Shown piece after piece: positions 21,577 to 45,912 of a DNA stretch of 64,000 nucleotides. The position numbers and the translations under genes are program-made. The stretch is taken from NCBI RefSeq assembly GCF_964204865.1, contig NC_135251.1:29264001-29328000 (forward strand). Direction: 5' to 3'. The stretch comes from Styela clava. Its lineage: Eukaryota. The notes below the pieces were generated by a model. That model did no database searches. It worked only from the letters and a program-made list of their open reading frames with translations, and was not told the DNA's origin. Each line of letters begins with the position of its first letter. Within the stretch, counting starts at the first letter, position 1.

Positions 21577-24500
21577 ATGAGGCGAAATAAAGTCGGAATC
21601 GGGGATTCCGATAGTGTAGTGAGCAACTCAATCAAACGAATTTCTTGTGGAAGAAAGAAAAGAAGCAGGAAAAACAAAAAACAGGTGAGATAATACGTTG
21701 TTAAAAAAAACTTTCGACACTGGAAATTACATGTAGTGATCATCTAGGTGGGTTCGGCTCAACACATCCGGGAAGCAGTTTTTACTATATGGTGATAAGC
21801 AATACTGTGGGGTGAAAACACGAACATTCTTCGTGATTTTGAAGATGCCCTATTAATCGAATCCACTGTTCATAATATTACTCTTGGCCTGTGTGTATGA
21901 CGTAGGGGTGACGACTGTGTGTATGACGAGGGGTGACGACGTGCTTGCACAGAGAACCTGAGCGTATGTACATTCACTTTAGTATATATCGGCTCCTAAT
22001 TCAGACTTTTGACATTTATGATGTACCCGTCTTGGGGGGTGTTATGTAAGGAATGCCTGTCGACCTTTATTATTCCGCGTGGGATTTAGATGAATATTTG
22101 TGGTCCCAACTTAGAATTTATACAGCTGTATGCATTGGCAGAATGGCATTGATCTGATACCATATCATGCACGCACCACTGATAAATGTGCGAGAGCGTT
22201 GGGAGAAGGGGTGTTTAGTTGTTGGTGGATACTGTTAATGTAATTCAGTTATGTCTGTGTGTGGAGGGCTAGAGATGAGAAGGAACACGAGTATGATGTA
22301 TTTGCGCTAGTACCGGTACTTGCTTAAAGCATATCGCCACCGTGTTCGCAGATAAATGAGGCTTACAAACAGGGATGTACCGGTACAATACGAATTTTAT
22401 ATTAGAATATCACGACCTTCGAATATCGGTAGGTATCGTTTTAGTGTTTATAAGCATATCGCACGAAAGTCCGCGTTTTGATTGAAAATATTTCACAGTT
22501 ATCTTATATTTATTTCATCATCCGGGTAATTGAAGATAGTCGCGTGCGCCGTCGTAACATACCGGTACCGGTACATACATAAATCTTAGCTGTCATGAGA
22601 AATTTAATTCACCGTCACTCGAGGTACGTATAGCACATCAACACTATGAGGACGTTTTTGATTGAAAATATTTTCCAAATATTATCATAAATCCATTTCA
22701 TCATGGTCCAGATAGCGCGGCCGCAGTACTTACAGCAAAAATTGTACCAGTATGTAATTATTTGTATATTGTCGCCAGATCCTATCATGATCGGGCATAA
22801 CAGAAATTTCTCTCGATTTAAAGCCTCTGAAATAGCGTTGACATTATTTAGTTTATATAGTGGATTTTGTTTTTGTTGATGAAAATATTATTCAATTTAA
22901 GTTAGCGGGATAAATTTATAATTAAAGATAAAAACATTACCTCAAAATAAAATTGATTGATTACAAATCCACAAGAAATATTTCACTTATTTAAATCAGC
23001 GCCAAACCACAATGCCATTTGGTTTATTTATATCTGTTTCATTATGATAATAATATTCAAGGACAATTTATGGTTATGGCCATCCCAGTTTACAGGTTGA
23101 GCGACATGGCACTATCGTCCAGTGGTCTGACAGACTGAGTTTGGCAACTGGTCAACAGACGATAGCCATATGATTGACAGTTGTTTTCAGCGACCCTTTC
23201 TTCCTCTCATATACTAGAATTGTGAACAATTTTACAGGAGTCAGAGAAGAAGGAAACTTCTGATTCTCAGGGGTGTGCAGGCTCTGAGGGGTCTGCAGCC
23301 TCTGAGAGCTCCTCAGCGTTTCACTGCTTCCTGGCAGGCCTAGCATGGATCTTGACAATTCTTCACTTCACCAAGAAAAATAAGGTAAGATGATTTCTTG
23401 ATGAGCATTTCTCAGTGATGACTATAAGTGGAAGCAGAGTAACTGAAGATCTAATAATATCCTCTCGGTCATAAATTGTCTATGAGACATATATGTTGTC
23501 TTAATTGCAACCTGCATCAATGAGCCTAGTCAATTTTCGGCAAAGGCTAGATTGGCGAAATCAACTTTGAAGTCCGTCCTAATATTGAAATAGAGTAAAA
23601 TCCAATTCATAGGCTACATGATTTAAGATTGTTTTTCTATCGCTCACTGAAACTTAATCCAGGTTTCGACAGAATGTGATGTTCTCCCGAATTCTGGACC
23701 GAAACTAATAAAAGTGGAACCAACAGCAGATAATAAAACAATTCCGTCTGTTGGTAATTCATCTTCACAGGATGATATCTTGCAGGTATGTTGCATAACC
23801 TTTAGTATGATGCATAACTTTCATCTTTATTCATTTCCTTTATGGGACTTTTCTACATCAGTGCAAGTCAAGTTTTATTGTTATAGGCATGGTGCAATGA
23901 TACATTATCTCAATATGTTGGCAATTTGTGTCGCAATAGTTCTGTAAATGCCTGCTGGTGGACAGCCTTGCTTGAAGAAAAACTCCTAAAAAACTACAAA
24001 TTTATTACGAATCTGATGACATATACTTTGTAATGACCCGAGGGTCATACTGACTAATAAAAGTTGGATGAGTTTTGTAAATTTCCAACGTTTTAATTTA
24101 GTCACCAGCAAAATCTGGGCAAGGAAACAACGAGGCGGTTAAGATCAAGATAGAAAGTCCAACATGTGATGATGTGAAATCAACTACTTCTGAGAGATCA
24201 AAATCAATCCAGAAGAAAGAAGAGAAGAGAGATGGTTGCAAATCACCAAATAAGGTACATCTTACTTTGACCAAAATGTTCAGATTTTGTTGACAGTCAG
24301 GTTTCCAGGCTCGGCTGCATGGCGCATTGTGCTAATTGTTAGGAATTCGCTCGCATGGGATTATATACGAGAGTATTGTTGAACTCCTCATACCCAATGG
24401 GTGGTTTAAGTAACCTCTGGTCGGTTCAGCTTCTCCACTATCAAGTATCTGAAACAAATAACTATTTAATTGATCCCATGTACGACATGGACTGGTCACT

Positions 24501-45500: not shown

Positions 45501-45912
45501 CTGCCAATTCGAGAACTGAGCATTGCTGAACTCGCGCTGCCGCAAGGTTCTACACGTACCGACCACCGCAATTTACGACTTCATCCCCTATTGACTCCAT
45601 GCATCTAAAATATATAACTGGCTAACTAATTCCATACAAGACATGGACTGGTCAACTGAATGAGAGGCCGGGGCTTGTCTATGATTAAGCCGTTTTACCG
45701 ACCCTACTCTCGCCCAGGACAAATTTGAAAAATTCCAATCTATATAAACTACTGTATAATGTGAGTGTTCCAACACGTGATATTTTTCTTAATTTCTTCC
45801 AGATATTGACTCGTCTTCTGGCGACGAAAGCATCATATTTCTGACCGAGCCATCTTCGAAAAAAGTTTCACGTGCAAAAAATTTTTTTCGTTCTGTTAAA
45901 AGAAGATTATAA
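21577..45912 (+). CDS. Uncharacterised large, acidic/low-complexity, exon-repeat protein, probably nuclear (about 60 exons, about 2,400-2,500 aa)
   Basis: Chain of GT-AG bounded, frame-compatible exons: 21577-21684 ([19 protein letters not shown]-like), 23663-23785, 24102-24254, 24641-24805, 24966-25118, 26939-27085; phase-0 repeat exons to 35172; 35448-~35561, 35712-35778; phase-1 exons 37071-44800; last exon 45803-45912 ending ..[11 protein letters not shown]. The indels seen in repeat exons are in frame (9 and 15 nt). Confidence 0.75.
24310..24582 (+). mobile_element. Degenerate tRNA-derived SINE
   Basis: Colinear with the younger SINE at 44871-45195 (gttaggaat, ctggtcggtt, gagaggctgtggttcg, gtcttat, tail atcctat). 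Confidence 0.7.
25141..26102 (-). mobile_element. Non-autonomous Tc1/mariner derivative with about 300-bp inverted arms
   Basis: TA TSD (25139-40 / 26103-04); termini cgaggtgcggctaaaatgaaacgggac. ORF 25193-25852(-) encodes the mariner N-terminal HTH domains ([44 protein letters not shown]) but no DD34D domain. Confidence 0.93.
26939..35172 (+). repeat. Tandem array of a 4-exon unit (about 1.13 kb; 147+126+147+150 nt = 190 aa), about 7.5 copies
   Basis: Exon B (LPAQ..) at 27279, 28416, 29563, 30699, 31821, 32968, 34631; exon A (SQAR..) at 28120, 29248, 30395, 31525, 32653, 34331; the introns are repeated too. Confidence 0.95.
38471..38831. mobile_element. hAT-type MITE (duplicated copy at 42396-42757)
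   Basis: TIRs cagggttctttaaact / agtttaaagagcactg; TSD atttaatg/ctttaatg. Confidence 0.8.
39830..40056. mobile_element. Merlin-like MITE copy 3
   Basis: About 41-bp TIRs ggtgctcccgaagtatgcgaaccaagatggcggacatcgga; perfect TSD cgtaatcc; empty paralogous site at about 43675-43700. Confidence 0.93.
40703..40809. mobile_element. Short degenerate hAT-type MITE
   Basis: caatggttctcaaa / tttgagaaccactg; TSD gtttatta/gtctataa (6/8). Confidence 0.6.
42396..42757. mobile_element. hAT-type MITE, segmental duplicate of 38471-38831
   Basis: Same TIRs and same intronic position in the second block. Confidence 0.8.
44053..44202. repeat. Minisatellite, about 44-bp unit x about 3.5
   Basis: ttgaaaaataaaaattcaaatt..ttttgtgttgtcaaatctcga repeated. 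Confidence 0.9.
44871..45195 (-). mobile_element. Full-length tRNA-derived SINE with (ATCCT)n tail
   Basis: On the minus strand: A-box TGGCTCAATGG, B-box GGTTCGAATCC, 3' end ..gtaaatcctatcctatc; several related copies occur in the window. Confidence 0.85.
45325..45517 (-). pseudogene. H2A: 5'-truncated histone H2A retrocopy (about residue V62 to stop)
   Basis: [63 protein letters not shown]; the N-terminal half is absent and no histone stem-loop is visible downstream. Confidence 0.93.
45518..45742 (+). mobile_element. 3' part of an old SINE whose B-box part lies at 44834-44870
   Basis: gagttcgaatcc..gtgcaagag | gagcattgctgaactc..gacatggactgg..gagaggcc..atgattaagccgt is colinear with the SINE family. 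Confidence 0.7.

Follow-up and report, generated by a model that had tools for sequence, protein, structure and literature searches.

A Styela clava gene expanded by tandem exon duplication encodes a long protein, predicted to be disordered, with a conserved N-terminal hydrophobic helix

Gene structure and repeat architecture of the locus

The window analysed here is a 64,000-nucleotide stretch of Styela clava contig NC_135251.1, and a 63-exon open reading frame was assembled on its forward strand between positions 21577 and 45912 (Table 1). All 62 introns have GT-AG boundaries and the sole stop codon is the terminal one, giving a coding sequence of 7,854 nt and a protein of 2,617 residues. 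The same gene is represented in RefSeq by XP_077966234.1 (uncharacterized LOC120336264, S. clava, 2,622 residues), with which 63 of 63 exons match, the only difference from the model built here being five extra residues after exon 51. The gene has thus already been predicted by RefSeq as an automatic model without assigned function, and the protein family is undescribed; four locus identifiers and one accession of the family are not mentioned in the literature searched, and topic searches likewise returned nothing.

Exon phases are symmetric, being 0-0 for exons 2-36 and 1-1 for exons 38-62. A first-pass annotation of this DNA had described an exon-amplified protein, and the repeat exons are indeed present as a four-exon unit occurring about seven times and a duplicated 11-exon block, the second of which it had overlooked along with the hydrophobic helix of exon 2 and the paralogous loci described below. 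Within the four-exon array (exons designated A, B, C and D) there has been a recent duplication of three units (3.4 kb), with exon 11 equal to exon 23, and the duplicated segment between 37 and 45 kb is approximately 3.9 kb. Exons 5-7 are old duplicates of a repeat exon, and a single ancestral exon underlies exons 5, 6, 7, C, D and 35b (nucleotide z 5-25). These data indicate that amplification occurred by frame-preserving tandem exon duplication. Older RefSeq models of the same gene (XP_039259832-44) contain only four, five, four and three distinct A, B, C and D exons, respectively, and a partial second block, which may reflect allelic variation, exon skipping or assembly collapse. Exon 2 is present in 12 of 12 of these older isoforms.

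Twelve sequencing runs matched the locus, of which none is recorded as RNA and eight were guessed to be RNA, so that "spliced" here refers to presumed RNA. Contigs from runs X1, X2 and X6, representing three studies, contained the joints between exons 2-3, 3-4, 4-5 and 5-6 at GT..AG boundaries and continued into exon 7. The exon 1-2 joint was observed in run X1 only, and in run X9 introns were covered and no joint was observed. Among the joints listed there were at least three in the four-exon array, to which contigs of the C19 paralogue (see below) can contribute at 90% likeness, and in the second, 11-exon block at least seven consecutive-exon joints together with one skip of exon 45. The gene is real and spliced, and the spliced transcription on which the first-pass annotation had made its proposal depend is seen, at the joints listed, in contigs of the presumed RNA runs. 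Contigs from X2 and X6 reached exon 2 from 5′ sequence other than exon 1, and other first exons also occur in RefSeq isoform X7 and in the model of the C1 paralogue, so that the basic exon 1 is replaced in some transcripts. The first exon of isoform X7 seems to map to 22356-22430, where it is out of frame in the window, and run X2 carries a 2-nt insertion at 22382; together these observations suggest that the alternative start may be allele-dependent.

Table 1. Parts of the exon-duplicated gene, followed by other features of the window
Feature	Position	Strand	Description
Exon 1	21577..21684	+	ATG and basic cluster, net charge +11; one of several first exons; alignable in C19, C1 and C14
Alternative 5′ exon	22180..22623	+	Spliced to exon 2 in run X2; lacks an in-frame ATG in the window haplotype
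Exon 2	23238..23384	+	Hydrophobic helix (residues 63-81), then KKNK; probably a membrane anchor; more conserved than any other family element
Exons 3-7	23663..27085	+	Phase 0, single copy; IKVE in exon 3, IKIE in exon 4
Exons 8-35	27279..35172	+	Phase-0 unit A-B-C-D, about 190 residues and 1.14 kb, about seven copies
Exons 36-38	35448..36468	+	Linker, across which exon phase changes from 0 to 1; the motif of exons 38-39 aligns with C14 paralogues
Exons 39-49	37071..40660	+	11-exon phase-1 block, copy one; acidic then basic; RQIPFYG and EEEIMEEI motifs
Exons 50-62	41001..44800	+	Block copy two, together with exon 60 (a basic amphipathic stretch) and exons 61 and 62, which carry NDIIEIEK and VKQE, respectively
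Exon 63	45803..45912	+	Acidic/Ser patch with SIM-like (SUMO-interacting motif-like) IIFLTE, basic amphipathic C-terminus, stop; kept in C19 and C1
Tandem arrays	467-1667		16-bp and 180-bp arrays
Receptor gene	9806-18506	+	Rhodopsin family (7tm_1), long third loop; presumably of muscarinic acetylcholine receptor type
Hairpin elements	20511-20612, 39830-40056		Short, resembling miniature inverted-repeat transposable elements; very many contigs collected
Mariner-type element	25134-26109		In intron 6; 239-nt terminal inverted repeats, truncated Mos1-type helix-turn-helix
Histone H2A fragment	45367-45516	-	In last intron; C-terminal half
Long terminal repeat retrotransposon	~48750-53780	+	Reverse transcriptase, RNase H and integrase matches; breaks in gag and integrase region
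Class-V aminotransferase exon	60660-60992	+	Presumably NFS1-like

Paralogues, predicted disorder and constraint on the repeats

Paralogues of the gene studied here (designated C2) were identified at three further S. clava loci, C19, C1 and C14, although more distant paralogues may be missed. C19 and C1 are paralogous over the full length, whilst C14 comprises four exon-2 matches in a tandem cluster. The corresponding RefSeq proteins are P0021 and P0005 (two models for C19), P0022 (C1) and P0023-25 (C14). When compared by blastp, C2 and C14 proteins aligned at the N-terminus including the helix (E 3e-7) and at an exon 38-39 motif ending RQIP[FY][FY]G (E 2e-4), with little else in common. Exon 60 and the last exon, the latter with an acidic-IIFLTE site and a basic amphipathic end, are common to C2, C19 and C1, and exon order differs freely among these three.

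Some further features of the paralogues were observed. The C19 paralogue (G000:C19:13.385-13.415 Mb) is seemingly one gene, divided in RefSeq into LOC144411841 and LOC120334504. In the C1 paralogue P0022 (G000:C1:6459000-6484000, minus strand) exon C has given rise to four HVRF..VF copies adjoining TPP and RRRRR stretches, which we take to resemble protein phosphatase 1 (PP1) docking motifs. This HVRF-type motif is not enriched in C1 (four versus 2.3 expected), and C19 has two KRVKF sequences. The C14 cluster (G000:C14:14.30-14.57 Mb, minus strand, P0023-P0025) consists of four or more distant paralogues. These have one very large exon, in which SxSxPxL and PKLDLS motifs are abundant, and a further helix at approximately residues 979-997 that resembles an A-kinase anchoring protein (AKAP) docking helix.

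Exon 35, the exon with the helix and the N-terminus served as queries in searches for homologues, and the rest of the protein was covered less fully. An exon-2 profile matched seven of 757 word-matched candidates, all from S. clava, and among 1.84 billion representatives there were six matches, five from S. clava and one to an unrelated repeat protein (E 5e-4). No relative of the helix outside S. clava was therefore found among the 757 candidates or the 1.84 billion representatives, and when residues 1-130 were compared with shorter proteins, none of 115 candidates was homologous outside this species. Two queries of the ESM Atlas gave no usable match, a result showing neither absence nor novelty. 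The suggestion of a lineage-restricted disordered protein is in agreement with these searches, in which relatives of the helix exon came from S. clava only, and with the predicted disorder.

FoldIndex values were below zero in 88% of scanned segments of the protein, which has a net charge of -149 and a proline content of 3.6%, and AlphaFold2 modelling of the C-terminal half of the C19 paralogue, from a single sequence and so weak, gave a mean predicted local distance difference test (pLDDT) score of 35. A ribonuclease III-like Pfam match (PF14622) of 52 bits was rejected, as it is a sum over the repeats with no stretch passing alone and covers only profile positions 74-121 of 128. Other Pfam matches in the protein were likewise sums over repeats in which no single stretch passes. 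The earlier statement that there is no globular domain is consistent with these data.

Ratios of nonsynonymous to synonymous substitution rates (dN/dS), were obtained with our own counting method and from pairs that are not independent. Within exon classes they were 0.53-0.67, the two 11-exon blocks compared with each other gave 0.51, and comparison with C19 (25 of 25 exons) and C1 (16 of 25 exons aligned) gave 0.69 and 0.80, respectively. Values of dS were close to intron divergence, and no stop codon was present in 28 repeat exons where 6.6 would be expected at 4% neutral change. The repeats are thus weakly constrained, with the frame kept and the sequence drifting. It is highly improbable that they represent near-neutral bloat in a dispensable gene, in which neither length nor motifs matter. 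Such a view is in keeping with the dN/dS range of 0.5-0.8, the free exon order among C2, C19 and C1 and the smaller number of distinct repeat exons in older RefSeq models; however, frame and splice sites are intact in 63 of 63 exons, three dispersed loci have each amplified the same exon family and the ends of the proteins are conserved.

SUMO-type and SIM-type motifs in the repeated exons

The first-pass annotation had interpreted the protein as a poly-SUMO/SIM nuclear scaffold with about 15-17 psi-K-x-E sites. Sixteen such sites were counted (22 including D) compared with 6.7 expected from shuffled sequences (p=0.001), and the motifs it had named, as well as the basic exon 1, lie on the plus strand where it had placed them. 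However, 13 of the 16 go back to just three sites that were multiplied along with the three exons carrying them, and all 13 are located in exons 8-35 together with eight EQVLDL sequences. When one copy per repeat was kept, three to six psi-K-x-E sites remained against 2.3-2.7 expected (p=0.048-0.42), with p<0.05 in one of ten unit/block combinations, so that the frequency is close to the shuffled expectation once copies are removed. Inverted motifs behaved similarly (24 versus 12 expected; p=0.21 with copies removed). At least two acidic residues are present in the ten positions following 14 of the 16 sites, compared with 57% of all lysines, which speaks for the downstream acidic patch, although the sites, being copies, are not independent of one another. 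Patterns of SIM type are rarer than expected (18 versus 30.2).

The proposal that three of the four exons in the repeat unit each carry a SUMO site holds for only some copies of each. IKSE is exact in five of seven C2 exon copies (six of seven including IKAD), VKHE is retained in three of seven and LKME in five of six. In comparison with C19, retention of IKS[ED] is six of seven in C2 and ten of ten in C19 (a consensus present in 16 of 17 exon-A copies), that of LKME is six of six in C19 (11 of 12 exon-D copies across both loci) and VKHE is absent from all six C19 copies. Columns of the motifs contained five variants versus 6.0 for random columns (p=0.42), a comparison of low power since 43-61% of columns are invariant, and for exons A and D alone the corresponding value was p=0.22. 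At the LKME register sibling exons have LKIK, LDGE, LNRE or FDGK and lack a psi-K-x-E site, which suggests that the sites are derived. Among the paralogues, C19, a close one, has 17 psi-K-x-E sites versus 5.9 expected, whereas the motif is lost from the more diverged C1 (one in 1,935 residues versus 4.0 expected) and C14 (two in 1,893 residues versus 3.9 expected), so that retention of the motifs extends to one paralogue and not to the others. The acidic-IIFLTE SIM-like site at the C-terminus is conserved in C2, C19 and C1, and it is this part of the supposed SIM array that persists, NDIIEIEK being absent in C19.

That the protein is a nuclear scaffold whose many SUMO sites and SIMs give it a valency dependent on exon number, whether or not it is attached to the inner nuclear membrane, is distinctly unlikely. 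The numbers of psi-K-x-E sites in C2 and C19, the consensus retention in exons A and D, the acidic patches, the inverted motifs, the conserved acidic-IIFLTE site and the basic exon 1 would all be in accord with it, and VKxE and IKxE are over-represented approximately 9-fold among genuine SUMO sites of human proteins (PMC13213312). Against this, the enrichment is weak or gone without copies, motif columns are no better conserved than others, VKHE is missing in four of seven C2 and six of six C19 copies, C1 and C14 are nearly devoid of sites, SIM patterns are below chance and the conserved helix is left unexplained. The N-terminal basic run, regarded as resembling a nuclear localization signal, is present as exon 1 but swapped for other first exons in some transcripts. 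The SUMO interpretation as first put forward is mostly an effect of counting copies, and the sites are likely by-products copied along with exons, though some repeat lysines could be SUMOylated in passing.

N-glycosylation motifs, LC3-interacting regions (LIRs) and RVxF motifs were not enriched in the C2 protein. N-x-S/T sequons numbered 36 versus 28.3 expected (p=0.07; non-redundant p=0.33), and a reading as a receptor for selective autophagy of the endoplasmic reticulum (ER) was dropped because LIRs were at or below chance.

The N-terminal helix, its interpretation and comparison with known systems

Apart from residues 63-81, no 19-mer of the protein is clearly hydrophobic (Kyte-Doolittle 1.65, compared with 0.69 for the runner-up). 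The equivalent segment is also the top hydrophobic window in C19, C1 and C14, with Kyte-Doolittle values across the family of 1.25-1.71. Over 20 codons the identity of the helix is 80% with both C19 and C1 and 70% with C14, and its codons differ from C14 at seven synonymous and six non-synonymous positions. AlphaFold2 modelling of a 136-residue N-terminal fragment of C14 gave a sole helix at residues 49-71 (pLDDT 87-88) with the remainder as coil. Just after the helix there are three, three, four and four basic residues in C2, C19, C1 and C14, respectively, and the 15 residues preceding it have a net charge of -2 to +1. All 31 records beginning with the family N-terminus carry the helix, a count that excludes eight C19 3′-half models and includes some records found via the helix itself.

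The best overall reading of these data, to which we give roughly an even chance, is a fast-evolving, membrane-anchored, disordered spacer protein produced by exon duplication. Tandem copying of frame-preserving exons would lengthen a chain predicted to be disordered, and the short N-terminal helix would hold this chain in an organelle membrane. As the basic residues are C-terminal to the helix the long tail would face the cytosol, and moderate hydrophobicity combined with the three or four basic residues agrees with a signal anchor of the mitochondrial outer membrane, with the ER also possible. On the cytosolic side the repeats would act as a long acidic spacer, and binding would probably involve a few conserved short elements rather than the repeats, candidates being RQIP[FY][FY]G, IIFLTE and the two basic amphipathic segments encoded by exons 60 and 63. 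The conserved C-terminal elements may grip a partner or a second membrane.

A number of observations weigh against this interpretation, among them the excess of psi-K-x-E sites in C19. The helix begins 46-62 residues from the N-terminus, after the +11 exon 1, and typical signal anchors sit nearer the N-terminus than this. Estimated Wimley-White values (0.30-0.45) fall on both sides of 0.4, the cut that separates ER from mitochondrial segments, and an estimated insertion energy of -0.4 to +0.9 kcal/mol is marginal. The C1 helix has only 13 uncharged residues between two arginines and the C14 helix has an internal lysine, and with such charged residues the helix may be surface-lying or protein-binding. 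It is accordingly possible, though doubtful, that the conserved helix is not membrane-spanning but a surface-lying amphipathic or protein-docking element (at the surface of lipid droplets or the ER, or in self-association). The marginal insertion energy points in this direction, as does a polar H/R/K stripe within the C1 and C14 helices, and the upstream basic exon need not then cross a membrane. In C2 and C19, however, the segment comprises 18-19 residues without K, R, D or E with Kyte-Doolittle values of 1.65-1.71, and it lies outside the top hydrophobic-moment windows.

The opposite topology, a type II membrane or secreted-side protein with exon 1 cytosolic and the repeats lumenal or extracellular as a glycosylated or calcium-binding stalk, appears very unlikely. 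The +11 exon 1 before the helix, the strongly negative net charge and the 36 sequons would suit such a stalk; however, the sequons are not clearly enriched, the basic residues adjoining the helix are on its C-terminal side, and Lys/Arg-rich exons and basic amphipathic ends would be better suited to a cytosolic or nuclear chain.

A more specific form of the spacer reading, which we consider unlikely, is that the family constitutes Styela-specific organelle tethers having an N-terminal mitochondrial outer-membrane or ER anchor, a C-terminal basic-amphipathic/SIM-like grip and a disordered ruler set by copy number. In such tethers the length of the ruler would be adjusted through exon copy number and exon skipping, and each paralogue would have separately amplified its own motif (psi-K-x-E in C2 and C19, HVRF in C1 and SxSxPxL in C14). 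If this were true, the paralogues, splice forms and perhaps alleles would provide natural length variants for relating spacer length to organelle distance, and short motifs could be seen arising and multiplying through exon copying inside one family. Most probably this is a further instance of a familiar pattern, in which a lineage-restricted disordered protein is assembled from symmetric exons that have been duplicated, and it illustrates clearly how exon amplification can inflate the number of motifs counted and even the score of a Pfam match.

Multivalent SUMO/SIM scaffolds are known of the PML, DAXX and ZMYM/CASP8AP2 type. The Styela protein is like PML/DAXX-type scaffolds in having psi-K-x-E sites in disordered sequence and a C-terminal acidic-hydrophobic SIM-like site, IIFLTE, which we take to resemble the C-terminal SIM of DAXX, but differs in that its sites lack conservation over the family as a whole, SIM patterns are fewer than expected, and the protein has a hydrophobic helix and no nuclear domain. 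With regard to the helix, signal anchors of mitochondria have been characterized by moderate hydrophobicity and at least three basic residues behind the segment, with a Wimley-White cut of approximately 0.4 (PMC4010795, section 5). In being a lone N-terminal segment of moderate hydrophobicity with three or more basic residues after it, the Styela helix resembles the outer-membrane signal anchors of Tom20/Tom70 type, whereas it starts 46-62 residues in, has a hydrophobicity bordering the ER class and precedes no folded cytosolic domain.

By analogy only, the gene recalls NBPF/Olduvai (DUF1220), in which triplets arose by lineage-specific tandem addition of a multi-exon block (bioRxiv 2021.07.06.450945), the likeness extending to a disordered product and later gene duplication. 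Unlike NBPF, it gives no Olduvai Pfam match at E 0.01 and has four-exon phase-0 and 11-exon phase-1 units and a conserved hydrophobic helix. Titin PEVK, described as having many short repeated exons, alternative splicing and length variation (PMC6469411), shares these features, but the Styela protein is without Ig/Fn3 domains, PEVK composition or homology. Mostly disordered proteins tend to arise from symmetric exons via internal tandem duplication (PMC3632108), and the Styela gene has the symmetric phases, internal exon duplication and predicted disorder of more than 70% that characterize such proteins.

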